A stretch of 64,000 nt of DNA from Planctomycetia bacterium (GTDB taxonomy: Bacteria > Planctomycetota > Planctomycetia > Pirellulales > UBA7805), in NCBI GenBank assembly GCA_021413585.1, contig JAIOQB010000278.1:783-64782 (forward strand), read 5' to 3'. A program made the position numbers and the translations under genes. How positions within the stretch are numbered: position 1 is the first letter of the stretch; each line of letters opens with the position of its first letter. The notes under the pieces were generated by a model. That model saw nothing but the letters and a program-made list of their open reading frames with translations. It ran no database searches and was not told where the DNA came from. Below are positions 34,778 through 60,793 of this stretch, piece by piece.

Positions 34778-35133
34778 TCTTACTCTCCTGCCTGCGTTGA
34801 TCGGTCGCTTACGAAGCTTGCCCACATTCGTCGTATCCGCTCCGACCGCCAAACTTGTGCTGCTCGCCGTTCCGCAGTTCACCTCTAGCGCGGGCGGGGA
34901 GCCCGACAGCGGTGAGTGGAGTTGCCAGCGTGGCAACGTAAAAATGCACGGGGTGACCGCGCTCTCGCGTCATTCGCAAGGGCGCCGCCGGGTGTGCATT
35001 AGGTTGGGGTGGGGGGCGATTAGCGTTTCTCAAAGCGTTTCAATTGTCCGCAAAGTACTCGCCTGCTTTGAAGCCTATGATAAACAGATGCATAAACTAG
35101 TCAAGCTAAGTAGAATAAATAAGCTAACCATTT

Positions 35134-35190
35134 TGGGTGTAATGGGAAGTTTACACTACGATTTACAGGGGTTTACACTTGGCCTTTACA
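35134..35190 (+). promoter_or_regulatory. AT-rich island with two TGGG-N5 9-mers followed by four phased TTTACA direct repeats, upstream of the giant gene
   Basis: TGGGTGTAA (35134) and TGGGAAGTT (35143). TTTACA at 35150, 35162, 35172 and 35185, giving spacings of 12, 10 and 13 bp. Lies 360-410 bp upstream of ATG 34777. Confidence 0.5.
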
Positions 35191-35451
35191 GAAGTAGCGC
35201 GGACCTCGCGTGAGAAAGAAAAACACCGTAAAAACAAGCGTTTTTCTGTACTTCGACGCAGCATCGAGGTCGTCAATGAAACGAAACTCGATGCAGCACG
35301 AACGGATGGTTGGTCGCGCCGCGACCAGAGTTGCCGGCTGAATCGACCCGCGATGGGCCCTGATAAAGGGCCCAAGAAAAATGAGCGGCGAAAAGGTAGG
35401 CAAGCAGTACTCACTGCTCAAACCACTCAAACCTCAACACCCGTTTTATCC

Positions 35452-36822
35452 TTACGCGCCAAAATACCCGCGCCACGCCAGGTCCAGCACTTCGTCGCTC
35501 AGCTCCAGCTGCCGATCGCGCAGGCGGCAGATGTCGCGGCAGCGTTCGATCAGATCGCGCGGCTCGCAGCAGCGCATCGACCGCTGCTCTGTTTGATAAC
35601 GGGCGAACAGCTTGCTCAACAACTCCGCCGGGACATCGAGTCCAAGTTGCGCCGCATAGCGGCGGAAGATTTCCGAATATCGCTCCGCGTCGGGATTGTC
35701 CAAGTGAACCCGATAGCCGATCCGCCGTAGGAACGCCGGGGTCATCACCTCCTGCGGATCGAGATTCGTCGACACCACCAGCAACTGCCGGAACGGGATC
35801 GCCACCTGCTGCCCCGTTTGCAGCGTGAGAAAATCGACCTGCCGTTCCAGCGGATGGATCCAGCGGTTGATCAACTGCTCGGGCGAAACGCGCTGGCAGC
35901 CAAAATCATCGAGCAGGAACGTGCCGCCGTTCGCCTTGACGTGCAATGGCGCTTCGCAAAAACCCTGGTTGTTGCTGAAGATCAGGTCCAGCGATTCCAA
36001 AGTCAGCTCGCCGCCAACCACAATAAACGGGCGGCGGACCCGCACCCAGCGCTGGTCGATCAATCGCGAAACATTGCTCGCCGACTCCAGTGGCGTCGGC
36101 TCGTGCACCGTCGGGTCGTAGATGCGGATGATGTTGTGATCGACCCCCAGGCAATGCGGAATCCACAGCGATCCGTCGACCGCATCGTGCAGTAGGTGCC
36201 CTAGCGTTGTCTTGCCGTTGCCCGGCGGGCCGTAGAGGAACAGGCTGCGCCGCGACAGGAGCGACAGGCCGACCACCTCCACCGTTTCCGACGACAAAGC
36301 CAATTCCGAAAGCGCGGTCGACACGCCGGCGAGCGTCGGCTCGGGCAGATGATCGAACTGCCAGCGCAGACTGGCGGCATAATCGGCCAGCGACACGGGG
36401 ACCGGCCCGATGTAGTTGGAAATCTCCAGCAGCCGCAGCGCCTGCTCGCGGCCGCGGTCCGTGATCGCCACATGGTGATTGAACACGCCCACCTGGCCGA
36501 GCAGCTCGACCAGATTGTCCGCCCGCAGCCGATCGAGAAGCTGCGACGTCAGGGCAGGGGGGAGGCAGAGCCGCTGCGATGCCCACTGCGTGGTGAACCG
36601 CGGCACGCTGTACGCCAGCTTCAGCGCCAGACCTTCCAGCACCGCCAGATCGATCCCCGTTTCGGCAAGATCCGAAACAGCCTGCGGCGCCGGGATGCCG
36701 CCGATATCGACCAGGCGATGATTGGGCGTCTGTGGCACGACGGGAGCCGGCACGACAGGTGTCGCGGCCGTCGCCGGCGCGGCCGTCCGCACGCTCGTTG
36801 ATTCTTGTTGGATCTTCAACAT
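35452..36822 (-). CDS. AAA+ ATPase of unknown function with N-terminal winged-helix-like region
   Basis: 456 aa. Walker A LFLYGPPGNGKTT, Walker B GGTFLLDDFG, sensor-1 LLVVSTNL, and Arg-rich AFLRRIGYRV. The N-terminal ~200 aa include LLDRLRADNLVELLG...VAITDRGRE. The start lies 60 bp downstream of the tadC stop on the same strand. Confidence 0.75.
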   Translation of the reverse strand: MLKIQQESTSVRTAAPATAATPVVPAPVVPQTPNHRLVDIGGIPAPQAVSDLAETGIDLAVLEGLALKLAYSVPRFTTQWASQRLCLPPALTSQLLDRLRADNLVELLGQVGVFNHHVAITDRGREQALRLLEISNYIGPVPVSLADYAASLRWQFDHLPEPTLAGVSTALSELALSSETVEVVGLSLLSRRSLFLYGPPGNGKTTLGHLLHDAVDGSLWIPHCLGVDHNIIRIYDPTVHEPTPLESASNVSRLIDQRWVRVRRPFIVVGGELTLESLDLIFSNNQGFCEAPLHVKANGGTFLLDDFGCQRVSPEQLINRWIHPLERQVDFLTLQTGQQVAIPFRQLLVVSTNLDPQEVMTPAFLRRIGYRVHLDNPDAERYSEIFRRYAAQLGLDVPAELLSKLFARYQTEQRSMRCCEPRDLIERCRDICRLRDRQLELSDEVLDLAWRGYFGA

Positions 36823-36882
36823 GCGGCGGATTGCAATTTGGACACGGTCAATCGTTTAGAGATTCGCGTTAACCGGCGGCGT

Positions 36883-37806
36883 TTAGTTCCAGCTTTGCAG
36901 CACTTCGAGAAACCGGATCAGGGCCGTGCCCATCATGATGATGTAGAGCGCAGGAAAAATACAAAGCACCGTGGGGAAGATCAGCTTCACCGGGGCTTTT
37001 TCCGCGAGTTCTTCGGCAAAGCGATAGCGCTTTTGCCGCAAGCTGTCGGCATGGACGCGCAGCGCTTTGGTGATGCTGGCGCCGAACCGCTCGGCCTGAA
37101 TGATGACGGAGGACAAGCCTCGCAATTCCTCGGCGTCGAAGCGGTCGGCGAATTGGCTCAGGGCCTCGCCCGTCGAGCGGCCCAGTTGAATCTCGCGCTG
37201 CACAATGGCCATTTCGGAAGCCAGCAGCGGATGGGCATCGTGCAATTCGCTGGCCACGCGGGAAAACGCCGCCGGCAAGCTCAAGCCCCCCTCCAGGCAA
37301 ATGACGATCACGTCCAAAGCGTCGGGGAGCGAGCGCCGCAGCACCTTCTGGCGCTTCGCCTTGCGTCCCTTCAGCCAGATCGTGGGGATGATCGTTCCCA
37401 ACAGACCGACAAACGTCCCGATCAAAATCGCAATAGGAAACGACAACAGTTGCAGTCCGAACAACGCCAAGCCCACCAGCATGGGAATGACCATGCAGAG
37501 AAACTTCACACCCAGGAAGATAGCGGACGAATGCTGTTGATACAGCCCCGCCTGCTGGAGCTGCCTCTTGAGCTTGCTGAGCTGGGCCTCGTCGTCGGGC
37601 ATCAGCACGGCGCCCATCCGCGGCAGGGCCGAGGTTTGCGACCGGCTGCTAATGCGCGTACTATTCTGCGGGCCGGGACGAACGACGTCCACCAACCGGT
37701 CAGCCACCGTGCGCTGCTTGTTGCCCAAGAGCATGGTGACCAGCAACACCATGCTGGACACAGCCGCGAACGTGGAGATCAGCAGTGGAAGATTGTCAAA
37801 GCTCAT
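36883..37806 (-). CDS. tadC: Tad pilus inner-membrane platform protein TadC (T2SS F family)
   Basis: 307 aa polytopic protein with the T2SF-domain pattern LPDALDVIVICLEGGLSLPAAF...EMAIVQREIQLGRS. Sits next to tadB and tadA. Confidence 0.85.
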   Translation of the reverse strand: MSFDNLPLLISTFAAVSSMVLLVTMLLGNKQRTVADRLVDVVRPGPQNSTRISSRSQTSALPRMGAVLMPDDEAQLSKLKRQLQQAGLYQQHSSAIFLGVKFLCMVIPMLVGLALFGLQLLSFPIAILIGTFVGLLGTIIPTIWLKGRKAKRQKVLRRSLPDALDVIVICLEGGLSLPAAFSRVASELHDAHPLLASEMAIVQREIQLGRSTGEALSQFADRFDAEELRGLSSVIIQAERFGASITKALRVHADSLRQKRYRFAEELAEKAPVKLIFPTVLCIFPALYIIMMGTALIRFLEVLQSWN

Positions 37807-37871
37807 GGTTCACCTGTCTTGTGCAAAGCCGCATGCTCATAGCTCAACGCTCACAACTCAAAACTTCCCGC

Positions 37872-38834
37872 TCAATAGTCAAAATTGATCACCTTACGAA
37901 TCCACAACGCCCCCATCGCCATCAATCCCAGCGCGGTGAGGATCAGCAGCGGGTAGCTCAGCAGCACCACCTCGTATTCATAATTGATCAGCATCAGCAG
38001 CGCGAACATGAACACCGGCAGGCTCAACAAGATGCCGGCCTGAAAGCGTCCTTGGGCGGTCAGGCTGCGAATCTTGGCGCGGATGCGATAACGTTCGCGG
38101 ACCACATCGCCGAGCTTGTCGAGCAATTCGGCCAAATTGCCTCCGGTCTGGCGATGCACCACGACGGAGAGGACGAAGATCTTGATTTCCAGGATGCCGG
38201 TGCGGCGGCCCATTTCGCGCAGCGCCCCTTCGGGCGATAGGCCGAGGTTCATTTGCTCGGTGCAATACATGAACTCGGTGGAGATCGGCTCGGCAAACTC
38301 CTCGGACACCGCGTACATGGCCTGGGAGATGGTCTGCCCGGCCCGCAGCACGCGGCTCATCAATTCAAATGCGTCGGGAAGCTGGCTGCGCAACTTCTCG
38401 ATCCGCTTGTTGCGCTTCATCAGGACGTATCCCCACGGCAGCACGCCGCAGACGCCGGCGAACACCCCCGCGCCGATCGGCCCTGCCACCGCGGCCCCCA
38501 CGATGCCGGCGAACACCGCGGTGATCGACGTGATGGCCAGCACCTGGTTGACCGTAATGTTCAACCCTGACTGCTCAATCTGATACGCCATCTTCTGCCG
38601 CCAGGGGAGATTGGCCGGCGATTTGGCGGCGGCGTCGGCGGCGATCCGCGTGAGATCCTGCGACGACAGCGCGCTGCGGACGCGCTGCCGCCCCTTGGTG
38701 CGGGACTGCTCTTCCATGCGCTCCCGCACCTTGCGGGCTTCGCTGGAACGCAAATCCGTCATCAACGAATTGATGGCAAACACGGCGATAAACACCGCGA
38801 CAAAAGCCAGAATGCTCACCAGGATGGAAATCAC
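37872..38834 (-). CDS. tadB: Tad pilus inner-membrane platform protein TadB (T2SS F family)
   Basis: 320 aa with LPDAFELMSRVLRAGQTISQAM...EFMYCTEQMNLGLS. Paralog of tadC. Confidence 0.85.
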   Translation of the reverse strand: MISILVSILAFVAVFIAVFAINSLMTDLRSSEARKVRERMEEQSRTKGRQRVRSALSSQDLTRIAADAAAKSPANLPWRQKMAYQIEQSGLNITVNQVLAITSITAVFAGIVGAAVAGPIGAGVFAGVCGVLPWGYVLMKRNKRIEKLRSQLPDAFELMSRVLRAGQTISQAMYAVSEEFAEPISTEFMYCTEQMNLGLSPEGALREMGRRTGILEIKIFVLSVVVHRQTGGNLAELLDKLGDVVRERYRIRAKIRSLTAQGRFQAGILLSLPVFMFALLMLINYEYEVVLLSYPLLILTALGLMAMGALWIRKVINFDY

Positions 38835-38853
38835 GGCTGCACCTTTCGCAAAA

Positions 38854-40191
<1,338 letters not shown>

Positions 40192-40287
40192 CCTGCACCC
40201 TTATTTCTGCAAAGTCGTACGGCAAAGTTTTGTATTTATTTCTTGTGTGTGCGTGCGTGGCGATTTTCAACGAGGACATTGCGCCTG

Positions 40288-41484
40288 TTACTTTTTTGCT
40301 TTGGCGGCGCCGCCCGACCACCAGCGGCCCAGCACACCCGATTGGCCGTTCTTGTGGTGTCCGTTTCCCGCGTGAGCGTGTTTTGGGGAATGGACGCTCA
40401 GGGCCAGACGCACCAGGCTGCGGGCGACCTTGGACGTGGGGCGTTCGATGACGACCGGCACTCCTTTGTTGTTGCCGGAGTTGATCGTGGCCGGATCGTC
40501 CGGCACATAGTGCGTCAGCGCCACGCCCAGCGCCTTCTCCGCCTTGCCAGCCGGCAATTCCTTGGGTTGGCCAAAGCGATTGACCACCACGCGGAGCTTC
40601 GCGTCGGCCACGCCCAGCCGGCCGACCTGATCGAGCAGCCGCTGCGCGCTGCACAGCGACATCATGTCCAGCCGCAGCGCCAAAAAGACGACGTCGGCCT
40701 GCACCAGCGCCGCCAATTGCTCGGGCCCCAATGAGCTATCAAGATCCATCACCGTAAACGGAAACAAGCTGCGCGACAGCGCCACCACTTGCCGCACGCC
40801 GGAGGCGGTGACTTGGGCGATCCCTTCCTCGCGGCTGGGGGCGGCCAGCAGTTGCACGCCCGAGTCGTGCTTCGTGAGCACCTGTTGGAACATGGCGGCG
40901 TCCATCCGCTCGCTCTTAAGACACAATTCGCCCAGCGTGTGCGTCGGCTTGAGATCCAGCAGCAGGGCCTGATCGCCGGCCGAAAGCCGCAGATCCAACA
41001 GCGCGGCGCGGCGATGCTTGATCGCCAGAGCGGCGGCAATGTTGACCGCCAGCGTGCTCGCCCCGCTCCCGCCGCCGCAGCCCAATATCCCGATCACCTG
41101 GCCCTGTTCGCCATCGGGTACCTGCTGCTTCGTTCGCAGGCGATTCAGCGCGGCTTCCAACTCGATTTCGACGTCGTCGAGATCGACGAACTCATGCGCC
41201 CCTTCGCGCAGCACCCGCAGGATGAACTTCGGATCGTCGGCGGCCCCCACGACGAGCATGATGCCCGCCACGCTGTGACGCAGTTCGGGTAGAACAGCCA
41301 ATGCCCGCTGCCGATCTTCGGGCACAACCAACATCACCAGGTCGTAGCGCGATCGGCTGGCGGCGTCGGCCGCCGCGTCGAGCGGGGTGATGTCGCCCGG
41401 GTCGCAATCCACGCCGCATCGCTGCGCGATGCTGCTAAGCTTGGCGCCGATCAGGTCGTTGTCAGTTACGACTAAGGCTCGCAT
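40288..41484 (-). CDS. tadZ: CpaE/TadZ-like pilus localisation protein (receiver-like N-domain plus MinD/ParA-like ATPase)
   Basis: 398 aa. N-terminal receiver-like fold (MRALVVTDND...). Atypical P-loop GILGCGGGSGASTLAVNIAAAL, as seen in TadZ/CpaE. Confidence 0.8.
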   Translation of the reverse strand: MRALVVTDNDLIGAKLSSIAQRCGVDCDPGDITPLDAAADAASRSRYDLVMLVVPEDRQRALAVLPELRHSVAGIMLVVGAADDPKFILRVLREGAHEFVDLDDVEIELEAALNRLRTKQQVPDGEQGQVIGILGCGGGSGASTLAVNIAAALAIKHRRAALLDLRLSAGDQALLLDLKPTHTLGELCLKSERMDAAMFQQVLTKHDSGVQLLAAPSREEGIAQVTASGVRQVVALSRSLFPFTVMDLDSSLGPEQLAALVQADVVFLALRLDMMSLCSAQRLLDQVGRLGVADAKLRVVVNRFGQPKELPAGKAEKALGVALTHYVPDDPATINSGNNKGVPVVIERPTSKVARSLVRLALSVHSPKHAHAGNGHHKNGQSGVLGRWWSGGAAKAKK

Positions 41485-41553
41485 CGATTCGTTTCCTCAA
41501 GTACGCGGCGCTGCGTCACATCGCTCAAAGGCATCGTGGTTCGCTGCAGGGGT

Positions 41554-42480
41554 CTAGTGCTGTTCCACGAGGATCACGCCGCGATCGTTGCCACGCAGCG
41601 TTTGAATGCTGCTGGTGGTCGACTGCGCCGGAGCGGGAACCTCCGCCGGTTTGGCGGCCGCTGCCGGGGCGGGATCTTCGGGCTTGGCCGGGGCGTTACC
41701 CAGGCCGCGGAACAACCCAGTGAAGGCGGACCAATCGGCGCCGCCCTTCGAGGCCCCTTCCTGGCTATAACGCAACTGGGCCATGGTGGCCGGGTTCGCC
41801 TTGCCGCTGCGGTGGTCGTCCGCGTTGCGGAGCGAGAGGTGCAGGTTACCCTTGTTCATCCCCAGGTCGAGCTTGGCCGCCTGATCGGGAGAAACAAGCA
41901 GCGTGGCGGTGGCCAGATCCTTGGTGTCGATTTTGTTGGTTTCCGGAGCATCGAGCACTTGATTGACCGCCAGCACTTCGATGTTCTGCAACAGCGTGGT
42001 GGTCACGCCGCCGCCCGATTTGTCGTCGGGCATCGAGTCGGTCATGGTCAGCAGGATGTCCACCTTGTCGCCGGGCATGATGAAGCCACCGCCGCCGGCG
42101 GCAACGTGCGACGTGCGGATCGTGAACGCCCGCATGCCGAAGGGAATCATCGCGGCCATGCCTCGCCCGGCGTCCTTGCTGGCCAGCTTCGCTTCCAGCA
42201 GCGGTTCGCCTTTGACCAGCGGCACGGTGGTCGTGCGACCGGCGGCGCGGGCGATGTCGGTTAGTGCTCCCGGCGGCAGCGCGGCGCTGGGCCACGGCCG
42301 AGTGGTCAGCGTTTCGGCCGACAGCACGGTGCCGCGGGAAATGTTGCCCGAGGCGATGACGATCTTCACGTCGTCCGCCTTACGGGTTTGCCCCTGGCCC
42401 GCAAGCTGGCTGACGCCCACCGCGGCCGAGCCGCCGCAGATGACCGCCAGAACGATCAAAATCATGGTGCGAACTTTCAT
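41554..42480 (-). CDS. cpaB: Flp pilus assembly protein CpaB/RcpC (SAF domain)
   Basis: ORF trimmed to ATG 42480 (MKVRTMILIVLAVICGGSAAVG). SAF-like region VKIVIASGNISRGTVL, then the RcpC-like region GDKVDILLT. Confidence 0.8.
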   Translation of the reverse strand: MKVRTMILIVLAVICGGSAAVGVSQLAGQGQTRKADDVKIVIASGNISRGTVLSAETLTTRPWPSAALPPGALTDIARAAGRTTTVPLVKGEPLLEAKLASKDAGRGMAAMIPFGMRAFTIRTSHVAAGGGGFIMPGDKVDILLTMTDSMPDDKSGGGVTTTLLQNIEVLAVNQVLDAPETNKIDTKDLATATLLVSPDQAAKLDLGMNKGNLHLSLRNADDHRSGKANPATMAQLRYSQEGASKGGADWSAFTGLFRGLGNAPAKPEDPAPAAAAKPAEVPAPAQSTTSSIQTLRGNDRGVILVEQH

Positions 42481-42580
42481 AGCATGCCTCACCGTAAAAA
42501 GAAGTTGCAGTGTGGGGAGCGGCCAGCGGCCGCGCACCGTAAGATTGCGGATCTCGTTCTATCGCCTGCCAGACTCTGTT

Positions 42581-43132
42581 CTATTGCCACCTGAGCCACA
42601 GAATAGTTCCCAATACTCCCACGGGCACCATCGCGCCGAACGGAATGACTCGCACGCGGCGGTCCGCGCCGGTCGAGAGCGTTTCGGCCAAATCGTCCTT
42701 GCCCACATGAACGCCCATCGCGGCGAAGCGTTGCACGATCAGCTTCAGCGTCAGCCAGCTCTCGCGAAATTTGCCGCGGACGATAATCATGGCCACGGCC
42801 ACCAGGCCGGCCACCAGCGCGCTGACCACGAACGCCACCACGGTTCCTTGCAAGCCGAGCCAAGCACCTACGCCCGCCATCAACTTCACGTCGCCGGCCC
42901 CCATCAGCCCCAGCAAGTGCGGCACGATCAACACGCCGAATCCAAACAGCGCGCCGAGCAGACTGGGGCCAATCCCCTGGCCGCCGGCGGCCAGACCGTG
43001 ATAGGCCAACCCGCTGATGAGCAGCGGAATCGTCAGCACGTTGTACACCCGGTACTTCCAAATGTCGGTCACCGCGGCGATGGAAGCCGCCAGCAGCGCG
43101 ACGGTCAGAGGGAGCCAGGTGATGTGTGCCAT
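42581..43132 (-). CDS. tadV: prepilin peptidase TadV/CpaA (A24 family, no methyltransferase domain)
   Basis: 183 aa polytopic protein. The two catalytic Asp contexts are AAVTDIWKYRV and GAGDVKLMAGVG. Confidence 0.85.
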   Translation of the reverse strand: MAHITWLPLTVALLAASIAAVTDIWKYRVYNVLTIPLLISGLAYHGLAAGGQGIGPSLLGALFGFGVLIVPHLLGLMGAGDVKLMAGVGAWLGLQGTVVAFVVSALVAGLVAVAMIIVRGKFRESWLTLKLIVQRFAAMGVHVGKDDLAETLSTGADRRVRVIPFGAMVPVGVLGTILWLRWQ

Positions 43133-43223
43133 GGAACGCGCTTCCTAACGAATCATTTGTCGCTAAACGACTTTTCTCAACGGCTTCTAATGCAGCGTGC
43201 AGCTATTGTCACCCACGGCCGCA

Positions 43224-43397
43224 TTACGGCAGCACGGCGTTGGTCGACGTGTAGGCCGCCTGAATCTTCGGGCCGATCAGCGCGATGGTGACCACGCAGC
43301 CGGCCACGATCAGCGCCAGCACGATGCCCAACTCCGTCACTTCCGCGGCTTTCTCGTCCGTGCAAAAACGCGTCGTCGCAGCAATCCACTTCGTCAT
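43224..43397 (-). CDS. flp: Flp family type IVb pilin (57 aa)
   Basis: Not in the ORF track because it is under 60 aa. Hand translation: MTKWIAATTRFCTDEKAAEVTELGIVLALIVAGCVVTIALIGPKIQAAYTSTNAVLP*. A T-run plus GAGAG lies upstream. Confidence 0.85.
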   Translation of the reverse strand: MTKWIAATTRFCTDEKAAEVTELGIVLALIVAGCVVTIALIGPKIQAAYTSTNAVLP

Positions 43398-43637
43398 TGC
43401 AAACTCTCTCGAAAAATGAACTACGTTTTTTTGAATAACTTTCGTCCGAGGTTCGCCGTCTGCAATCGATTCCCCCCGCGTCCCCTCAGGGCCCGAAGGC
43501 CCGTCGGGTAGCGTGGAAAACTGTTGCTGGCTCGACCGTGATGCAGCGCGTCGCGAGCGATGCAGCGCGTCGCGGCTTTGCCAGCAGCGCGGCGTTGCAG
43601 ACGGGGCGAAACTTGCCCGCCAAAACAGCCAGCGAGC

Positions 43638-43811
43638 TTACGGCAACGCGGCGTTGGTCGTGGTGTAGGCAGCCTTGATCTTCGGACCGATCAGGGCGAT
43701 GGTGACCACGCAACCGGCCACAATCAGCGCCAACACAATGCCCAACTCCGTCACTTCGGCGGCCTTCTCGTCCGCCACAAAACGCTTAGCCAAATTCATC
43801 CACATGCGCAT
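43638..43811 (-). CDS. flp: Flp family type IVb pilin (57 aa; alternative starts at 43805 and 43799)
   Basis: Not in the ORF track. Translation: MRMWMNLAKRFVADEKAAEVTELGIVLALIVAGCVVTIALIGPKIKAAYTTTNAALP*. TTTTTTTAAGGGAG lies upstream. Confidence 0.85.
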   Translation of the reverse strand: MRMWMNLAKRFVADEKAAEVTELGIVLALIVAGCVVTIALIGPKIKAAYTTTNAALP

Positions 43812-44009
43812 CTGGTCGCTCCCTTAAAAAAATGCGGAAACACAACTCGAACACACCATGCCGCGACCGCCGTCGCGGCGAAGTCAGCCCCGCTGCGTCG
43901 AGCAGCCAGGCTGAGAAACTCGCTTCGTCGGCAGCGACCTTTTGGGCGATGACCAGTGCGGCCACGCCAAAATCGCCGCTGCGGCGACAAAGTGTTCTAA
44001 TCAGTATGA

Positions 44010-44054
44010 TGGGAAAGACAGGAAATACAAGTAATGTGGGATAGCTGGGAATAA
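44010..44054 (+). promoter_or_regulatory. five in-register 9-bp units in the AT-rich island upstream of the flp-flp-tadV operon
   Basis: TGGGAAAGA, CAGGAAATA, CAAGTAATG, TGGGATAGC and TGGGAATAA at 44010, 44019, 44028, 44037 and 44046. CAGTATGA lies at 44002. The element CTGGGAATAAT recurs at 49989. Confidence 0.5.
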
Positions 44055-44197
44055 TATGACCGCTTACACCACTGTTAGTCGTAAAATGCTTTAATAACAA
44101 TACTTATGACGAAAATGTTAAGACTTCTTGACACTGAGATTTTGTTCATCAACTCTATGAACTTGACGCATTCATCCCAATTCAACTTTTGATGCCA

Positions 44198-44366
44198 ATG
44201 CCGCGCCGGTCGGGGACCGGCGGCTAACACCATTTTGCTTGTGAGCCGCTCCCCGACCGGCGCGTTTCGCAGCTGCGCGATGCTCTTCAGAGGGGAGCGG
44301 CATCCAACTATTTATTGGTGCGAACGATGCGCCGGTCGGGGACCGGCGGCTAACACCGTTTTGGCG
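44198..44366. repeat. REP-like repeats (two direct copies and one inverted partial copy)
   Basis: gcgccggtcggggaccggcggctaacacc occurs at 44203-44231 and 44329-44357. An inverted partial copy gccgctccccgaccggcgcg lies at 44245-44264. The core gccggtc-ggg-gaccggc is self-complementary. Confidence 0.75.
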
Positions 44367-44388
44367 TGCTGACGCTTTACGTTCCGCC

Positions 44389-46317
44389 TTACTTCACCAA
44401 CGCACCCTCGGTTGAACCGACGATGGTGGAGAAGATATCGGACAAGCGTTGCTGGTAGTCGGCCGGGTTGCCGGAGGCAACCGGGCTGATCTTCGGTCCG
44501 GTGGGATTGTTGGGATCCTGGACCGCGGTGCCGGAGAGACGGGCCATGCGGTCCATCATCGTTTGGTCGGAGGCCAGCCCAATCCCCACGGCGTATACGT
44601 GCCAATCCAGGGCCTGCATCATGCCGACCTGCATCATCACGGCGTTGCGTTCTTGATAATTATTATCGCTGCTGGTAAACCACTCGCCGTCCGGATTGTG
44701 CGTGGCATCGTAGCTGGTTTCGTAGTTTTGGATTGTCGTGTTGCTGCTCTGCTTGACGTTGACCACGCCGTCCGAAAGGTACACGACGACCTTATCGGCC
44801 CCCGGCCTGGCGCCGGTGGGATTCAAGGTGGGATCCAGTTGGTTCTTGGCCAGGATCAAACCGTTCTCGCCCGCCGTGCTGCTCTGGTCGTCCGCCACGG
44901 CCTGGTACGTGGTGCAGGCCTGCTTGACCGCGTTGTAGTCGCACGAGTTCACATTCAAAGGATACCGAACCACGGTATCGGCGGCCGTGTCGAACGTGAC
45001 CAGGGCCACGTGGTCCTTGGCGGATTCCGCCAGACCCGCATTCCGCTGGGCAATCGTGTCGATGGCGGCCATGATCCCCACGCGCGCGGCGTGCGTCGGC
45101 TGCTCGCGCGGCGGGAAGTTGAAGCCGTAGCCGGCGCTGGAAGGATCGGTATCCTGATGGTATGGGCAAAACGAACTGGCGGTGGACAACGGTGTGTAGG
45201 TTGAGCCCGTCACCACCCTGTTCCGACCGAAGTCCATCATGAATTGCACATAGGTCTGGTAGCCGAATTTGTTATAGAAGACGGTGGCCGCAGAACTAGT
45301 CAGCGAGGGCCACGCATCCGACGACGGATTGTCGGCCGACGAGATCCCATACGAATTCTGGTTCGCGGGCACACTGCCGGTGTAGTTGCTGTAGTTGGTC
45401 CGCTGTGCTGTGGTAAGCGTGTATGGCTGGATGATGTAATCCAGATACACTTCCCAATAGGCGTAGTTCGTCGTGCTGTTGGGAACCGGCTTGGCCAGCG
45501 GCATCACGGTGGCCAGTTGCGTGTCGATGATCCACTTGTAGCCCTTCTGCTTCCGTGTGGCCGCCGAGTCACTCGTGAGTATCTTGTACGTCGCGTTGAT
45601 CGTCGAGCCGCTGAGATACCCGCCGTTTCTCGTCAGGTTGTAGAACGCCTGGTTGTCCTGCGTTACGTTGCCGTTGCCCATGTATTGCAATGTGCCCGGA
45701 TAGGCGCCATAGCCAAAATCCGCGAAGACGTTGGTCATCATCGTGCTGCCGAGGTTGGGATATCCCGACGGGGCGTACTTCGAGTCGATGGCGGCAGTGG
45801 CCCAGATTTCCGTGTCGTTGTTCATCGACCCGGACAAGTCCATTACGAACACAATATCGCGCGGGTTGCGCACGGCGATCGACGTGGCGGTGACATTCGA
45901 TTGCGTCAGCCCCAAAATACCGGCAAAGCTCAGCGGGACCGGATTGCCGGTGGCTTGCGTTCGCGTGACGGTGACCTGGACCGCGTTCGTGGACGAATTA
46001 CTGGGAGTGAACGTCTTGGTGGAGGAGTTCCAGGTGCCGAGCTGCACGTTCTGGCTGGTGAGCACGTTGCCGTGGTTGGGATGATTCAAGTTGGCGTAGA
46101 GCTGGGCGGTGCTGGTCACCGTGGTGAGGTCGGGAATGTAGCGCACCGCGGCCAGGGCCGCCGCATCGGCGGTGGCTTGCAGTTGGGTGCGGACCAGCAC
46201 CGTGGTCCCCATGTCGATGGCACACGCCACCATCCCCAGCAAGACCACCAGCAACACCGCGGACAGCACCAGCAGGGCCCCACCCCGACAACGCTTCTTG
46301 GCCTTGAGACGTTTCAT
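44389..46317 (-). CDS. tadG: TadG-like pilus-associated protein with von Willebrand factor A domain
   Basis: ORF trimmed to ATG 46317 (MKRLKAKKRCRGGALLVLSAVLLVVLLGMVACAIDMG, a TadE/G-like N-terminus). MIDAS-type motif DIVFVMDLSGSMNNDTE. Confidence 0.8.
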   Translation of the reverse strand: MKRLKAKKRCRGGALLVLSAVLLVVLLGMVACAIDMGTTVLVRTQLQATADAAALAAVRYIPDLTTVTSTAQLYANLNHPNHGNVLTSQNVQLGTWNSSTKTFTPSNSSTNAVQVTVTRTQATGNPVPLSFAGILGLTQSNVTATSIAVRNPRDIVFVMDLSGSMNNDTEIWATAAIDSKYAPSGYPNLGSTMMTNVFADFGYGAYPGTLQYMGNGNVTQDNQAFYNLTRNGGYLSGSTINATYKILTSDSAATRKQKGYKWIIDTQLATVMPLAKPVPNSTTNYAYWEVYLDYIIQPYTLTTAQRTNYSNYTGSVPANQNSYGISSADNPSSDAWPSLTSSAATVFYNKFGYQTYVQFMMDFGRNRVVTGSTYTPLSTASSFCPYHQDTDPSSAGYGFNFPPREQPTHAARVGIMAAIDTIAQRNAGLAESAKDHVALVTFDTAADTVVRYPLNVNSCDYNAVKQACTTYQAVADDQSSTAGENGLILAKNQLDPTLNPTGARPGADKVVVYLSDGVVNVKQSSNTTIQNYETSYDATHNPDGEWFTSSDNNYQERNAVMMQVGMMQALDWHVYAVGIGLASDQTMMDRMARLSGTAVQDPNNPTGPKISPVASGNPADYQQRLSDIFSTIVGSTEGALVK

Positions 46318-46395
46318 ATTGCACCTCGTGAGATTGAAGCCGATGTGATGCACAAAATGTTTGCCGTGCCCCGGCTTGAAATCACTGTTTTCTAG

Positions 46396-46845
46396 TTATT
46401 GTTTTCGCATGATCACTTTGCCGACGAGAGCCTTGTTCGGCATATACAACGCGGCCCCTGGCAGCCACGTCACGCTGCTATACGGCACGGTGACGGTGAC
46501 GGAGATCTGGGTGCCGGCGGGAGAGGCGTCGGCCGACGGCGAAATGGTGACCGTCGCGCCGTTGATCTTCGCCGAACTCAGGTAGTTCGTCACCGCGGTA
46601 TTGCACGCCGCGTCGCTGCCGAGGTTGATCGTGGCCCGGCGGGCCCCTTCGCGGGCGGCATTGGTCACAATCTGGGCCACCATGATCTTGCGCCCAACTT
46701 CAATGGTGCCCAGCGCCATCAGCGTCAGCGCAGGGGCCAAGATCGCCAACTCCAGCACCGAGGCGCCGCGCCGCATGCGCCAACGTCGGGCAGTGCGCGC
46801 CGCGCGCGACTGAGGTTGTTTTGCGTTATCCATCATCACGATCAA
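46396..46845 (-). CDS. tadE: TadE-like pseudopilin
   Basis: RRGASVLELAILAPALTLMALGTIEVGRKIMVAQIVTNAAREGARRA is the TadE N-terminal signature. Confidence 0.8.
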   Translation of the reverse strand: MIVMMDNAKQPQSRAARTARRWRMRRGASVLELAILAPALTLMALGTIEVGRKIMVAQIVTNAAREGARRATINLGSDAACNTAVTNYLSSAKINGATVTISPSADASPAGTQISVTVTVPYSSVTWLPGAALYMPNKALVGKVIMRKQ

Positions 46846-46865
46846 TCCTTTATGGCCCTACGTCG

Positions 46866-47336
46866 CTATTCCTTGATCATCACGACTTTGCTCGTCAGGC
46901 TTTTGCCCTTGAGCCAGCTTGGCGGAATCCACGAAGCCTGATCGAGCGGGATGCTCACCGTCACCGTGAGTGCCGTGCCGGCCGTGGCCGAATTGGCCGA
47001 AGGAACAATCGTCGGCGTGTTGTAGGTCATGATTTTGGCGGCGTTGAGATAATGGGCGATGGCCGCGATGCAATCCGCATCGGTCCCGCCGGGCAACACC
47101 GCCACGCGGCTTCCTTCGCGCGCCGCGTTGGTCAGCACTTCGCCCACCATGACCATCCGGCCAAACTCCACGATGCCGAACGTCAGCAGCAGAAACAACG
47201 GCAGGGTCAAAGCTAGCTCGGTAATTTCAGCGCCGCGGCGCTTCAGTGAGGGGCACTTCAGCCAGCCATGCGGAAAACGGCGGCGCAGCGCCACGGATGA
47301 AACCACGGGTCCGGTTGTTTGGTCCATTGATTTCAC
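46866..47336 (-). CDS. tadE: TadE-like pseudopilin (second copy, TadF position)
   Basis: RRGAEITELALTLPLFLLLTFGIVEFGRMVMVGEVLTNAAREGSRVA. Confidence 0.8.
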   Translation of the reverse strand: MKSMDQTTGPVVSSVALRRRFPHGWLKCPSLKRRGAEITELALTLPLFLLLTFGIVEFGRMVMVGEVLTNAAREGSRVAVLPGGTDADCIAAIAHYLNAAKIMTYNTPTIVPSANSATAGTALTVTVSIPLDQASWIPPSWLKGKSLTSKVVMIKE

Positions 47337-47813
47337 CTCGCAGCTAGCAGCGGTGTTGGTAAGGATGCCGCCTCATCGATCTGGTAATCTAATCCCCAAC
47401 GCTCGGGGGGGTATTTCACTGCGTAACCTATACATAATTTACGCATAATGCACAAGATTTGAGGCATGAATAGCTTGGGTTGTCTCTGTGCCGTTCTAAT
47501 GCCGGACAATAGGTAGAAATCTGCAAGCTTGGATACGCCAGTGACGACGCACTAAGCCATTGTCACCATACTAGTTGCAGCAATCAAAAATGCCAACTTT
47601 TCCAGGTCGATCATCCCGCGCAGCCCCAAGCGGTTCGTTGCCAACGGCACGAAAACCACTTGCGAACTCCTGCCTGGGCCAGACCCCGCCATCTTTGAAA
47701 TCACCCCAAGATCGCAGAAACCGCCAATTTACGCTGTCTCGCGAACTGCCCCCGCCCAAGCAGCCGCCGTCAACTAGGTCAGGCGGCACACCGCACGGCC
47801 GGTCGAGGCGTCG

Positions 47814-47987
47814 TTACGGCAGCGCCGCATTGGTCGACGTGTAGGCGGCCTGAATCTTCGGGCCGATCAGCGCGATCGTGACCACGCAACCCGCCACGAT
47901 CAGGGCCAGCACAATGCCCAACTCGGTTACTTCCGCAGCCTTTTCATCGCACACCAACCGGCGGGCGACATTGATCCACTTGCTCAT
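47814..47987 (-). CDS. flp: Flp family type IVb pilin (57 aa)
   Basis: Not in the ORF track. Translation: MSKWINVARRLVCDEKAAEVTELGIVLALIVAGCVVTIALIGPKIQAAYTSTNAALP*. TTTTTTGACGGAGA lies upstream. Confidence 0.85.
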   Translation of the reverse strand: MSKWINVARRLVCDEKAAEVTELGIVLALIVAGCVVTIALIGPKIQAAYTSTNAALP

Positions 47988-48194
47988 CGAAATGTCTCCG
48001 TCAAAAAAGGTTTGATCTCTAAATTCTGAGTCTGAATCCCCGAATCCGAAACACGCAGAAACTCCGTCGTCTCACCGGCGCCGGCCGGCAAGTGCGCGGT
48101 CCAACCGACCTCCAATTCCCTGGAGGACCGATTGAAACCAGCGCATTGCCTGGCCGTCACAGCGGGACTGCACCTACGCTTTAGGCAAAAGAGC

Positions 48195-48368
48195 CTACGG
48201 CAAGGCGGCGTTCGTCGTCGTGTACGCAGCCTTGATCTTCGGTCCGATCAGGGCGATCGTCACCACGCAGCCGGCCACGATCAGGGCCAACACGATACCC
48301 AGCTCAGTCACTTCAGCGGCCTTTTCGTCGGCCACGAAGCGCTTCGCCATCTGCTTCAACATGCTCAT
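48195..48368 (-). CDS. flp: Flp family type IVb pilin (57 aa)
   Basis: ORF 48195..48428 trimmed to ATG 48368: MSMLKQMAKRFVADEKAAEVTELGIVLALIVAGCVVTIALIGPKIKAAYTTTNAALP*. TTTTTTTCAAGGGGAG lies upstream. Confidence 0.85.
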   Translation of the reverse strand: MSMLKQMAKRFVADEKAAEVTELGIVLALIVAGCVVTIALIGPKIKAAYTTTNAALP

Positions 48369-48414
48369 CGCACAAACTCCCCTTGAAAAAAAGGAACGAA
48401 AAACTCCACAACGC

Positions 48415-49845
48415 TTACAACAGGTCATATTTATGCAGCTTCTTGTACAACGTCACCCGGCTGATTCCTAAATGCCGGGCGGCCAGCGAGCGGTTGTTGC
48501 CGCTCTGGTCCAGCGCGTTGCGCAACAGACGGAACTCCACGTCAAAACGGGCTTCGTCCAGCTTGGATGCCACCGGCCGCTGCGGTTCGACGCTGCCCAC
48601 GTGGCTTCCCTGCTGGCGCACCGCCGCCGGCAAATCCTCCAGATCGACCGGACGGCCAGGGTACAACGCCACGGCGCGTTCCATCACGTTGCGCAACTCG
48701 CGGATATTGCCCGGCCAGGAATAATCCTCGATCGCGGCCAGCGCCTGCGGCGAAATCGCCGGCGGCAGGCAATCGTGCAACGCCGCCACGTCCGCCAGAA
48801 AACGGTTCGCAAACGGGACAATCACCGAGCGCCGCTCGCTCAGTGGCGGCAACCGTAGCGTCACCACGTTGACGCGATAAAACAGGTCCGAGCGAAATTG
48901 CCCCGCCGCCACCTGCTCTTCCAGCGAACGCGTGGCGGTCACGATGATCCGGGCAGTCAGCGGCACCGGGCGATCGCTGCCGACCGGTTCGAACACCTGT
49001 TCGTCGATCGCCCGCAACAACTGGGCCTGAGCGGCCGGCGGCAAGGCGTCGACGTCGTCCAGCAGAATCGTCCCATTCTGGGCAGCGGAAAGCTTGCCGG
49101 CGCGATCCGCTTCCACTCCGCCAAATGAACCCTTTACATGGCCAAATAATTCGCTCTCGACCAGACTGGGACTAAGCGCGCTGCAATTGATCGCCACAAA
49201 CGGTTCGTTCGGCCGAGCCGACAATTCATGAAACAATCGGGCCAGGTGGGTCTTGCCCGTTCCCGTTTCACCGGTCAGCAGCACGGGCGTGGCCAGCGAT
49301 GCCAGTTGACGCATCTGCTCGACGATGCCGGCCATCTCTTCGGACTTGTCGTACAGAAACGGCGGCTGGGAACCGATGCTGCACAAACCCGCATTGAGCC
49401 TGGCGGCGTTCGGAAACGCGCCGTAGTACGACTTGAACGTCAGCATGTCGACGACAAACGCCAGGCGAAGCAGATCCAACGGCCGCGCCAGATAGTCCGC
49501 CGCGCCGTGTGCCAGCAGCTTGACCGCCTGCGGAGTCTCATAGCGATCGCAGATCGGCACCGCCGCGGTACTGCGTCCCGAGCTGCGGCACTGGTCGATC
49601 AAATGCAGTGCTTGTGCTTCGTCGAGGGCTGGGGAAGGCTCGGTTGCCGTGTCCTTGCTGTCGGCGCCGGCAACGTGCATCAGCATGACCGCCGGTCGGG
49701 CGGTCTGAAGCTGGCGCTCTGCATCGGCCACACGATCGACGACGTTCAATCGGCAGCGGCCCACGGAAACCATGGCCTGCTCGACCGCGGCGCGTAGCGC
49801 AATATCGCTGGTAACCAGCAGTGCAGTCGCAGGCATGATAAACAA
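48415..49845 (-). CDS. NtrC-family AAA+ transcriptional activator (receiver-like N-domain, sigma-54-interaction-type AAA+ domain, Fis-type HTH)
   Basis: Walker A LLTGETGTGKTHLARLFH, then ESELFGH. GSFGGV occupies the GAFTGA position. C-terminal HTH NRSLAARHLGISRVTLYKKLHKY. Confidence 0.85.
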   Translation of the reverse strand: MFIMPATALLVTSDIALRAAVEQAMVSVGRCRLNVVDRVADAERQLQTARPAVMLMHVAGADSKDTATEPSPALDEAQALHLIDQCRSSGRSTAAVPICDRYETPQAVKLLAHGAADYLARPLDLLRLAFVVDMLTFKSYYGAFPNAARLNAGLCSIGSQPPFLYDKSEEMAGIVEQMRQLASLATPVLLTGETGTGKTHLARLFHELSARPNEPFVAINCSALSPSLVESELFGHVKGSFGGVEADRAGKLSAAQNGTILLDDVDALPPAAQAQLLRAIDEQVFEPVGSDRPVPLTARIIVTATRSLEEQVAAGQFRSDLFYRVNVVTLRLPPLSERRSVIVPFANRFLADVAALHDCLPPAISPQALAAIEDYSWPGNIRELRNVMERAVALYPGRPVDLEDLPAAVRQQGSHVGSVEPQRPVASKLDEARFDVEFRLLRNALDQSGNNRSLAARHLGISRVTLYKKLHKYDLL

Positions 49846-49955
49846 CGCATGGTTCGGCTAATGTGTCGCTAAAAAAACGCGGCGCCCCCACGCCACGTCA
49901 CTGCCACGCGCAGCAAACAGCGACCCTCCTCCCGGATCCGTAAATCCGTTCCGAC

Positions 49956-50016
49956 CAGTATGACGTGAAAATGCAGAAAAACAATATACTGGGAATAATG
50001 GGGTATATGGGATATC
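49956..50016 (+). promoter_or_regulatory. CAGTATGA box plus three consecutive TGGG-N5 9-mers in the divergent regulator/secretin control region
   Basis: CAGTATGA at 49956. TGGGAATAA (49990), TGGGGTATA (49999) and TGGGATATC (50008). They sit in an AT-rich island at about 49950-50130. Confidence 0.5.
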
Positions 50017-50492
50017 AATACAGCGAAAAAGCACTTAAGTCGTTATTTAATATCAACTTAAAGCATAAAATAACGCCTGTGAAACATCCTTATTGATCCA
50101 TAAAATCGTTAAATTCTACGCTTTGCCCGCACACATCCCTTAATCACCCACTTGCGCCGCTTCACTCTAGACACGATTCGGGCAGCAAAAGCCACGCTCC
50201 AAACGGCTCAACCGCCCGCGATGGCTCCCCCACAAAACTGAAGCCCGCGTGGCATAACCGCTACAGATTGCCTGAGCGGAACAACCCGCACTTCGCGATC
50301 TCGTTTTTCCGGATCTGCCGAGCTATCGCTCTGTGCCGGCATTTAGTTCTGTGCGGGTCATGCCGAAGAAACACGTTGTTCCCCCGCAGGTGCGCCGCTG
50401 CGCAGAGCGGGGGGGAGAACGTCGTACATCACTGCGACCAAATCGCAATCGCTTAGCAACAAGACCCACCAAGCCGCCAGCGTCCACCAACT

Positions 50493-54665: not shown

Positions 54666-55059
54666 CTACCGCTACACCAACGGCGCGACTCCTACGGCGC
54701 AGGCCCAGTCCATCCCGCAATCGCTGCCGGAGCAGATCGGTCCAGCTCCCGCCGCGCCGACCATGGCGAACCCTGCGACGATGGAAGAGCCCGCGCGAAT
54801 CGTGCGGCTGCCGATTCCGTACGGCATCGGCGCCGCGGCGATCGAGGCCCGGCCTCCGGTGGCGGTCCCCGCTCCGATCGTGACCCAACCGCGGCCAATC
54901 ACATTCGCCCCGCCCGCGCTGCCGGGAGAGAACGCGGCAACCCCGCGATACAGTGCGCCGAGCAATGCAGCTTCACCAGGCGCTCCGCCGACCAGTGCCG
55001 CCACCGACACCGGCTCGACCGACCAGACATCGCTAGTCCTGCGGATTTCCCCTCCGTAG
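54601..55059 (+). CDS. Pro/Ala/Gln-rich segment in the +1 frame: either the frameshifted C-terminus of the TPR lipoprotein or a separate small ORF
   Basis: The frame opened at 54409 reads ...PAPAQQASYVLPAMPPAAGNMTAAGNMPAGDRYADYRYTNG...LVLRISPP*. Its composition continues that of the preceding frame up to NVPAQYNPPAIA. First ATG in this frame after the switch region is 54601. Confidence 0.4.
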   Translation: MPPAAGNMTAAGNMPAGDRYADYRYTNGATPTAQAQSIPQSLPEQIGPAPAAPTMANPATMEEPARIVRLPIPYGIGAAAIEARPPVAVPAPIVTQPRPITFAPPALPGENAATPRYSAPSNAASPGAPPTSAATDTGSTDQTSLVLRISPP

Positions 55060-55196
55060 GATCTGCGCATGTGCTGTTAGATTGTGGGAATGCCCCGGCG
55101 TTTATACCTAGTTAGCCTGCTGGCGCGAACGCACTGTTACCGCACGTCGAACTCCGGAGACCAGGAAGCGGGCATTCGCGGGTGATGGGGACTCAG

Positions 55197-55416
55197 GTCC
55201 CGGAGGGACCATTGAAAATAGCCCAGCGATTCATCGCTGGGTTCGAGATCTCAATGCCAGTGCGTCCCGGAGGGACGCTTGAACATTCAGATCCGGTTGG
55301 CTCGCACGTTATCCTGTGCTTTGTCTTCAAGCGTCCCTACGGGACGCAGACGAAATGCGCGCTGAACTTTACCCAGCGATAAATCGCTGGGCTATTATCG
55401 TGCGTCCCTGCGGGAC
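55197..55416. repeat. composite nested palindrome (MITE/REP-like)
   Basis: Four GTCCC-NNN-GGGAC hairpins at 55197, 55264, 55333 and 55404. Two CCCAGCGAT-NNN-ATCGCTGGG hairpins at 55222 and 55372. The arms gggacgcttgaa / ttcaagcgtccc and aatagcccagcga / tcgctgggctatt pair across the element. Confidence 0.8.
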
Positions 55417-55528
55417 GGGGTATACGCGAGGAGAGTCGTCATCATAGCGATAACGCGTTAAACACTCACCGACGTTTATGCCGGAACGTCTACAGGTTTT
55501 ACTGCCCGACCACTTTCCAAAGAGCCAC

Positions 55529-60427: not shown

Positions 60428-60745
60428 CACATGCTCCTGAGGATTGAGTCTGAAAGTCTCTGCGTGATTTCGCCCGTTCACAGTCAACGCGCCCGCGTCT
60501 CTCGTGTGTCGTCGCCCCGCCGATTTACAATCCGCTCCGTGTCCGCCACTGAAGCGGGCAGTGGGTGTTTGCAATTTGCATACCGAAGTTGCCGCGATGC
60601 GCGCAGAACATCGCGCGGAGTCACAACTACTGTGTGCGTGGCACGTTGAAGGCACAGAGAATGCGCCGTGCGCAGAAAATCTCAGAACCGCAACCGAAAA
60701 TTCTTGCTAGCTGACAATGCTCCGCCTGCCGGGCAAATGTGCAAA

Positions 60746-60793
60746 TTTATCGGATATTTATGATACTTATGGAATACTTATGAGTATTTACCG
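60746..60793 (+). promoter_or_regulatory. AT-rich island with five phased TTTAT/TTTAC direct repeats between kdpE and amtB
   Basis: TTTATC (60746), TTTATG (60757), CTTATG (60766), CTTATG (60777) and TTTACC (60787). The TTAT/TTAC core spacing is 11, 9, 11 and 10 bp. Confidence 0.5.

Follow-up and report, generated by a model that had tools for sequence, protein, structure and literature searches.

Which regulatory signals link the pilus genes and the giant adhesin gene at the Tad locus of a Planctomycetia bacterium? The question is raised by a 64,000-nt stretch of contig JAIOQB010000278.1 (positions 783 to 64,782, forward strand; assembly GCA_021413585.1), referred to here as the window, in which three AT-rich islands, designated (a), (b) and (c), lie upstream of the gene for a giant surface protein and of operons for Flp pilins and other Tad components. 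A first-pass annotation held that all three islands share tandem 9-bp TGGG-N5 units bound by one multimeric protein that co-regulates pilus and adhesin genes. The best explanation of the material as a whole, and a fairly probable one, is that these are Tad pilus/adhesin promoter regions of Planctomycetia with two unrelated cis elements. The three islands would be two different things, namely a palindrome for a bacterial enhancer-binding protein (bEBP) in (a) and a duplicated promoter with a 9-bp repeat in (b) and (c), and this division is likewise held with moderate confidence. The earlier observation is thus confirmed in part and its interpretation supported in part: the islands do appear to be pilus and adhesin regulatory regions, and pilus–adhesin co-regulation is plausible, the evidence being consistent with one regulator, but neither the motif nor the unity of the three islands held up.

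The Palindrome of Island (a)

The features at issue are the following.

22676–34777, minus strand: giant surface protein gene (4033 aa), with ATG at 34777 and an AGGAGAG ribosome-binding site; signal peptide, PATR repeats and PEP-CTERM anchor.
35077–35104, minus strand: sigma-70-like promoter TTGACT-N16-TATCAT facing the giant gene; 10/12 matches, the best in the 17 kb scanned.
35134–35151, unstranded: TGGGTGTAA TGGGAAGTT, island (a) as first annotated; overlaps 14/18 nt of the palindrome, with no lag-9 signal.
35138–35155, unstranded: palindrome TGTAATGGGAAGTTTACA, predicted upstream activating sequence (UAS) or operator of the Tad-locus bEBP; the sole exact TGTAA-N8-TTACA in 64 kb.
35162–35167, 35172–35177 and 35185–35190, plus strand: three extra TTTACA half-sites in one orientation, spaced 10 and 13 nt.
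48415–49836, minus strand: NtrC-type bEBP gene (473 aa); sigma-54 contact loop GSFGGV versus GAFTGA, with the helix-turn-helix (HTH) recognition helix ISRVTLYKKLHKY conserved.

Both 9-mers reported from (a) occur exactly where they were placed, but they are the left arm and spacer of TGTAATGGGAAGTTTACA in a frame shifted by four bases, so that a different element had been parsed wrongly as two repeat units. The palindrome shows no mismatch to TGTAA-N8-TTACA and one to the 12-nt version, TGTAAA-N6-TTTACA. Two or fewer mismatches to the 12-nt version are found at just three positions in the 64 kb (35138, 35150 and 44116), all of them in islands (a) and (b). Local alignment detected no similarity of (a) to (b) or (c), and the TGGG units of the latter two do not match the palindrome. 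The promoter TTGACT-N16-TATCAT (35104–35077) lies 34 nt from the palindrome on the side of the giant gene, which puts the palindrome centre at about -76 relative to the predicted start.

Island (a) is inferred to be a binding site of the NtrC-type activator encoded in the locus. The 18-bp palindrome TGTAAt-N6-TTTACA and the three TTTACA half-sites would together form an operator cluster for that activator, and the sigma-70-type promoter would drive the 4033-aa PEP-CTERM surface protein. As the palindrome occurs in (a) and, in degenerate form, in (b), the element joining the adhesin to the pilus island would be TGTAA-N8-TTACA rather than TGGG-N5.

A Conserved Control Module in Related Loci

The pairing of a bEBP gene with flp is kept in distant Planctomycetes loci. 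A metagenome scan with an flp alignment contributed 19 more loci. When 19 related flp loci were scanned for sigma-54 promoters, 17 proved to have a near-consensus one (TGGCAC-N5-TTGCT) at 117–157 nt upstream of the ATG; in a further locus, L006, the distance is 96 nt. Most relatives also possess a TGTAAA-N6/7-TTTACA palindrome with 0–1 mismatch, 150–185 nt upstream of the sigma-54 promoter and often accompanied by extra half-sites (e.g., L025). The exact TGTAA-N8-TTACA has seven matches across the related loci that were fetched. The full order of palindrome, ~150–185 nt, TGGCAC-N5-TTGCT, ~96–157 nt and flp ATG was seen in L004, L006–L008, L010–L020 and L023–L025. A second recurrent motif, TGTAAC-N8-TTAGCGCT, occurs upstream in several of those loci. 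Taken together, the comparison defines a conserved Planctomycetes Tad-pilus module of bEBP, TGTAAA-N6-TTTACA and sigma-54 promoter at fixed spacing.

The window bEBP shares its HTH recognition helix, GISRVTLYKKLHKY, with the bEBPs of L004 and L007, and the helix of L006 departs from it at one residue; the same DNA specificity would be expected from such identity. A counterpart of the relatives' site is present before the flp1 pilin gene of the window.

44116–44133, unstranded: TGTTAAGACTTCTTGACA, degenerate bEBP palindrome (2 mismatches), with its centre 313 nt from the flp1 ATG.

The distance from palindrome to flp ATG is 269–341 nt in relatives (280–325 nt for sites with 0–1 mismatch), and the 44116 site of (b) is, judging by this spacing, at the orthologous position.

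In the L004/L005/L016 clade a sigma-54 promoter, TGGCACGCCAGATGCT, stands ~150 nt upstream of the bEBP ATG, which suggests autoregulation of the bEBP in that clade. Its counterpart in the window is only a weak look-alike, TGGCAGTGACGTGGC, at 49892–49906.

Apparent Loss of Sigma-54 Coupling in the Window Lineage

The contact loop of the window bEBP reads ELFGHVKGSFGGV (residues 229–242), with GSFGGV in place of GAFTGA, and the same protein sequence is repeated in L003, an independent Logan assembly. The other 119 homologues listed carry G(A/S)(F/Y/I)T(G/S)A or a sequence close to it, which in two of them is SAFTGA, and all keep the central Thr, so that the window bEBP is alone among the 120 in having no Thr. 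An intact GAFTGA, the mark of a sigma-54-dependent activator, is accordingly absent from this protein. In most cases sigma-54 activation is lost when the central Phe or Thr of GAFTGA is replaced (PMC3162934), and GAFTGA-defective homologues act at sigma-70 promoters (bioRxiv 10.1101/2023.06.06.543975; PMC3162934).

A consensus search and a weighted scan found no sigma-54 promoter above background before the flp genes or the giant gene. The best scores were 9.7–10.4 before flp1, flp2 and flp3 and 11.2 before the giant gene, relative to a background median of ~11 per 300 nt and to 12.5–14.9 in relatives. One candidate remnant was recognized.

43954–43969, minus strand: TGGCGTGGCCGCACTG, possible sigma-54 promoter relic, which retains the -24 TGGC but not the -12 GC.

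The distances of this sequence to the palindrome centre (155 nt) and to the ATG (158 nt) are like those in relatives, and from this geometry it is possibly a decayed ancestral -24/-12 promoter. Another sequence upstream of flp1, TTTCCCATCATACTG, was put under the relatives' sigma-54 promoter by MAFFT; it was rejected because its distances to the palindrome (111 nt) and to the ATG (202 nt) do not fit.

These results suggest that the lineage moved Tad pilin expression from sigma-54 to sigma-70-type promoters and kept the bEBP as a DNA-binding regulator. GAFTGA and the sigma-54 promoters of flp persist in sister lineages, so that the change looks recent. A bolder and rather unlikely version would have the lineage in mid-conversion from sigma-54/bEBP to sigma-70 control: the Thr lost but the recognition helix kept, the sigma-54 promoters of flp decayed (perhaps leaving the -24 relic), a sigma-70-type module with a new 9-bp CCCA-repeat operator duplicated before both flp operons, and the palindrome recruited to the adhesin gene. 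If this were true, pili and adhesin would be co-controlled by a sigma-54-independent bEBP plus a second, putative repeat-binding factor. Transcription control in Planctomycetes is little known, and the lineage is a candidate natural case of the replacement of an enhancer-dependent promoter, in which the module seems to have been recoupled to sigma-70-type promoters and to have taken in a giant adhesin gene.

Islands (b) and (c) as a Duplicated Promoter

The features of the two remaining islands and the genes that they flank are as follows.

43224–43811, minus strand: flp1 (43638–43811) and flp2 (43224–43397), pilin genes downstream of island (b).
43994–44172, minus strand: segment of (b) homologous to (c); local alignment z=5.4.
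44003–44030, minus strand: sigma-70-like promoter of flp1-flp2-tadV and the genes that follow; -35 TTGTAT (44025–44030), 16-nt spacer, -10 CATACT (44003–44008).
44010–44054, minus strand: repeat of (b), on the gene strand TTATTCCCA GCTATCCCA CATTACTTG TATTTCCTG TCTTTCCCA; ~-58 to -14, with two well-formed units at -58 to -41.
47814–48368, minus strand: flp4 (48195–48368) and flp3 (47814–47987), directly after the bEBP gene; paralogues of flp1 and flp2.
49948–50124, minus strand: segment of (c) homologous to (b); local alignment z=5.4.
49957–49984, minus strand: sigma-70-like promoter of the bEBP-flp4-flp3 operon; -35 TTGTTT (49979–49984), 16-nt spacer, -10 CATACT (49957–49962).
49990–50016, minus strand: repeat of (c), on the gene strand GATATCCCA TATACCCCA TTATTCCCA; ~-66 to -40 of the bEBP promoter.
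50493–52313, plus strand: secretin (RcpA/CpaC-like) gene, diverging from island (c).

Islands (b) and (c) are paralogues, both derived from a single promoter region of ~180 nt. The score of their local alignment (z=5.4) was reached by none of 300 dinucleotide shuffles. All of the strings reported from them are exact, namely TGGGAAAGA CAGGAAATA CAAGTAATG TGGGATAGC TGGGAATAA at 44010–44054 and TGGGAATAA TGGGGTATA TGGGATATC at 49990–50016. The 11-mer said to be shared, CTGGGAATAAT, is found in the window solely at 44045 and 49989, and the box CAGTATGA solely at 44002 and 49956. Given the paralogy, the 11-mer and the box are not independent recurrences. The sharing of CAGTATGA as an upstream box stands, although the box itself is the reverse complement of the -10-like hexamer CATACT within TTGTWT-N16-CATACT and is shared by promoter duplication.

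Because the downstream genes are on the minus strand, each TGGG unit becomes N5-CCCA when read in gene direction (e.g., TTATTCCCA), and the consensus of the 9-bp repeat on that strand is nnTATyCCCA. In an ungapped comparison anchored on the promoters, (b) has CCCA cores at -53 and -44 and (c) has them at -61, -52 and -43, corresponding cores being no more than 1 nt apart, and a TGTA half-site stands exactly 38 nt before the -35 in both. In the proposed scheme, copy (c) would drive bEBP-flp4-flp3-tadE-tadE-tadG, and copy (b) would drive flp1-flp2-tadV-cpaB-tadZABC. An orthologous bEBP promoter, TTGACT-N16-CATACTGG, again with CATACT beyond a 16-nt spacer and with TTTC at the same spacer positions, occurs in the L007/L011/L013 clade, and no CCCA repeat is present upstream of it there.

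Beyond the predicted start of the bEBP transcript by ~50–85 nt, its presumed 5′ leader contains a terminator-like hairpin followed by a seven-T run (49876–49899, minus strand), which may be an attenuator.

Several other identities were tried for sequences within the two promoters and rejected. An extracytoplasmic function (ECF)-type reading of the conserved GAAC after CATACTG was dropped, as (b) and (c) share no common -10. The UP element is defined by an uninterrupted A/T-rich tract at -38 to -59; the -59 to -38 segment of (c), CATATACCCCATTATTCCCAGT, is broken by CCCA every 9 nt, as compared with AAAWWTWTTTTnnAAAA. A G-quadruplex or i-motif needs four close G3/C3 tracts; (c) has only three, and (b) has three with a 24-nt gap.

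Status of the 9-bp Repeat

Periodicity was assessed in 76-nt segments with 5000 shuffles, taking the maximum over lags 5–15. The strict 9-bp register that had been described for all three islands is borne out in (b), where lag 9 gives the best self-identity (0.51 over 76 nt, p=0.0002), and in (c), where it is also the best lag (p~0.02), but not in (a), which has no 9-nt periodicity (best lag 12, p=0.78). Islands (b) and (c) rank near the top for lag-9 self-identity among all AT-rich 76-nt segments of the window. If a tandem array is taken as at least three head-to-tail units of one length that share a core, (c) has three with a TGGG core, (b) has two good and three degenerate ones, and (a) has in effect none. 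Tandem Repeats Finder detects only (c), with a score of 32, which is under the default threshold of 50.

In the 7.9 kb of intergenic DNA in the window, TGGG at spacing 9 occurs four times versus 0.24 expected (Poisson p~1e-4). This nominal enrichment disappears once the 4352 possible combinations of 4-mer and spacing are counted, several of which beat TGGG at spacing 9. Some 4-mer triple at equal spacing of 6–12 is present in 72% of shuffled intergenic sets, so the finding of one is not significant, and across the window single TGGGRWWW units number 17, against 16.6 expected by chance. Absence of the array from orthologous loci had been named as the result that would count against it, and in 131 kb of related Tad loci no TGGG/CCCA 9-bp array was found in any promoter region, the relatives in this comparison being distant (bEBP 43–46% identity). 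In those loci TGGG-N5-TGGG occurs only inside the tadV coding sequence, at the GLMG motif, which also accounts for the coding match at 42900 in the window.

The repeat most likely arose by slippage, and the account of it with the largest share of belief, albeit one falling short of an even chance, is that it has no function: a slippage repeat or chance pattern inherited through duplication of a promoter-flp-flp unit. The paralogy of (b) and (c) is consistent with this, as are the divergence of the region, which approximates the synonymous divergence of the duplicated flp genes, the readiness with which chance yields equally spaced 4-mer triples, the lack of an array in relatives, and the existence of other AT-rich islands with weak 8–11-nt tandem repeats (7856–7885, and 60745–60790 upstream of amtB). 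It sits less well with CCCA cores that are in register (≤1 nt) in both copies despite ~40% neutral divergence, with an exact 11-mer that is shared in shifted register, which would be unexpected under neutral decay, or with the -40 to -66 position, the zone where activators and the C-terminal domain of the RNA polymerase alpha subunit act.

The same in-register cores, shared 11-mer and position favor the tentative reading, credited with roughly a third of the weight, that the repeat of (b) and (c) is an operator for a putative factor. Were it functional, that factor would be placed to contact RNA polymerase. The bEBP is an unlikely candidate, as its DNA-reading helix is conserved for the TGTAA palindrome, and Pfam scans of the locus recognized no small repressor gene of the kind that serves MetJ- or omega-type arrays.

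That one multimeric protein binds head-to-tail TGGG-N5 9-mers in all three islands, and so co-regulates pilus and adhesin genes, is improbable. The strings do exist and all face the same way with respect to the minus-strand genes that they precede, a nominal enrichment is seen for TGGG at spacing 9 (the four occurrences given above), and (b) and (c) have their exact 11-mer in common. But (a) has only two units, no lag-9 signal and no likeness to (b) or (c), and the palindrome accounts for all of it; (b) and (c) amount to one evolutionary observation; the enrichment is lost given the number of possible patterns; and the array is not present in any related locus. The TGGG 9-mer array as first proposed is thus weakly supported and of modest interest.

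Also improbable, and marginally the less probable of these two, is a structural role, in which phasing of the T-rich/C-rich units would bend or stiffen the stretch that separates the promoter from the bEBP site, as do integration host factor (IHF) sites or curved DNA at enhancer-dependent promoters. The repeat of (b) does have the degenerate palindrome (centre ~-128) on one side and the core promoter on the other, and its periodicity runs through the whole promoter as 6–7 units from -58 to -5. Planar curvature, however, is not produced by a 9-nt period, as opposed to one of 10–11 nt, the units have no true A-tracts, and (c) possesses the repeat but no palindrome with fewer than four mismatches.

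Very improbable, finally, and rejected, is the idea that the plus-strand GGA/GGGA stretches are a small RNA or leader that titrates a CsrA-type protein, for although the plus strand of (b) holds five (A/G)GGA motifs in A/U-rich context, there is no Rfam match at the islands at gathering thresholds or E≤5 and no bracketing plus-strand promoter/terminator pair, for the genes downstream of (a) and (b) the plus strand is the antisense one, and the motifs are not conserved in relatives.

Several points weigh against the explanation favored here, of Tad pilus/adhesin promoter regions with two unrelated cis elements. The promoter rules of Planctomycetes are poorly characterized, and the start sites used above were placed from sequence. 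An alternative -10 (TATTAT or CATTAT) overlaps the shared 11-mer, which could place part of the repeat within the transcript. Measured from the -35, the position of the exact 11-mer, ATTATTCCCAG, differs by 10 nt between the two islands, a shift that is not explained by simple descent and that hints at selection or at gain or loss of units. The duplicated flp genes diverge by 36–40% at third codon positions, equal to the divergence of the (b) and (c) promoters, so there is no sign of purifying selection over the region as a whole. Palindrome matches with two mismatches occur at chance frequency window-wide (7 found, 5.2 expected), and position is consequently the sole argument for the degenerate palindrome of (b). 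Binding of the bEBP to the palindrome is, moreover, itself a prediction.

Comparison with Known Systems

Activators of the NtrC family control pilin genes through upstream activating sequences, e.g., PilR at pilA, and the sites of NifA are palindromes of the TGT-N10-ACA type. The Tad module resembles such systems in that the activator gene adjoins those for pilin, the site is an inverted repeat accompanied by additional half-sites, and, in relatives, it lies ~150–165 nt upstream of a textbook -24/-12 promoter. The window differs in that its palindrome precedes a giant adhesin gene and stands beside a sigma-70-like promoter, that no sigma-54 promoter is detectable, and that the bEBP has no GAFTGA threonine.

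GAFTGA-defective bEBP homologues at sigma-70 promoters include NtrC of R. capsulatus, NtrC of Caulobacter, VpsR of V. cholerae, TyrR, DhaR and HupR (bioRxiv 10.1101/2023.06.06.543975; PMC3162934). The window bEBP shares with them the AAA+ bEBP fold, an altered L1 loop and target promoters without -24/-12 elements. Unlike theirs, its loop is substituted (GSFGGV) rather than deleted, and a -24 relic may remain at 43969.

Head-to-tail arrays are bound by ribbon-helix-helix repressors, as in the 8-bp metboxes of MetJ and the 7-bp heptads of omega. Both these arrays and the repeat of (b) and (c) comprise two to five head-to-tail units of fixed short length that overlap or abut a promoter. The unit here is 9 bp, only two or three copies are well conserved, no ribbon-helix-helix gene was recognized in the locus, and the array is known from sequence alone.

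A regulatory parallel is provided by PprB of Pseudomonas aeruginosa, which co-controls Flp pili, CupE fimbriae and the giant adhesin BapA. In both cases one regulator encoded near the tad locus would link Flp pilus and giant adhesin genes, a link that in the window is predicted. PprB is, however, a response regulator that is not a bEBP, as opposed to the NtrC-type bEBP here, and the motif and phylum also differ.

Locus, Lineage and Pilin Paralogues

The source lineage is a deep-branching Planctomycetia metagenome-assembled genome (MAG). The nearest non-identical homologue of the locus bEBP in a search of 5.8 billion proteins has 46% identity, which makes a close alignment of orthologous intergenic regions impossible. 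A TadZ search of GTDB genomes returned only two Gemmatales MAG loci (37–47% identity), in a set that contains neither the source genome nor any close relative, and a megablast of a plasmid collection gave nothing beyond distant CpaF matches. Logan contig L003 is from the same population as the window (99.96% identical), with zero single-nucleotide polymorphisms in the islands. Two JGI loci share the synteny of the Tad block.

The Tad/adhesin block (49836 to 22676) is encoded entirely on the minus strand. The order is bEBP (49836–48415), flp4, flp3, two tadE, tadG-VWA, island (b), flp1, flp2, tadV, cpaB, tadZ, tadA, tadB, tadC, a 456-aa AAA+ gene, island (a) and the 4033-aa gene. As a candidate regulator, the 456-aa product of the last tad-operon gene was set aside; no DNA-binding domain could be detected in this divergent AAA+ ATPase. 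The giant gene likely starts at ATG 34777 rather than at TTG 34936, the start of the maximal open reading frame. It has internal DNA repeats of ~330–420 nt, and its PEP-CTERM sorting signal is C-terminal.

The four 57-aa flp paralogues form two duplicated pairs. At the protein level flp1 is closest to flp4 (91%), and at third codon positions flp1 and flp2 differ by 24% versus 36% for flp1 and flp4, a pattern that may point to gene conversion inside each pair.

In the gap that separates the end of tadG from island (b), a 49-nt element occurs in two copies (44189–44237 and 44315–44363) that are 88% identical and 126 nt apart, and that hold the GC-rich hairpin GCCGGTC-GGG-GACCGGC. An inverted repeat of 20 nt (95%) spans 44202–44264 in the same gap. 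These elements of 44189–44363 are repetitive extragenic palindrome (REP)-like or terminator elements.

Other Repeats and RNA Elements in the Window

Short tandem repeats are also seen outside the Tad block. A ~9–11-nt repeat at 60745–60790, GGATATTTAT GATACTTAT GGAATACTTAT GAGTATTTAC, includes the palindrome AATACT-TATG-AGTATT and lies in an AT-rich island upstream of amtB-glnK (58535–60655 and 57897–58235), just downstream of a gene for a KdpE-like regulator of the OmpR family. When the TGGG unit was generalized to GGA(A)TA, a look-alike cluster appeared at 60752–60776 upstream of amtB; it was rejected as a different repeat/palindrome of an unrelated operon. Two 8-nt tandem repeats, CGAAAACG (3.8 copies, 7856–7885) and TTTCGCGA (4.2 copies, 7933–7966), occupy a promoter-like intergenic gap at 7680–8030.

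The gap at 54666–55528 contains two copies of the Acido-Lenti-1 RNA motif (RF01687) in opposite orientation, at 55196–55241 (minus strand) and 55372–55417 (plus strand), with scores of 39.7 and 49.1 bits, both over the gathering score. Lastly, the 6221–6911 gap carries GC-rich 15-nt periodic repeats (GGTGGTCC and so on) that are typical of a Gly/Pro-rich repeat protein, and it is probably coding.

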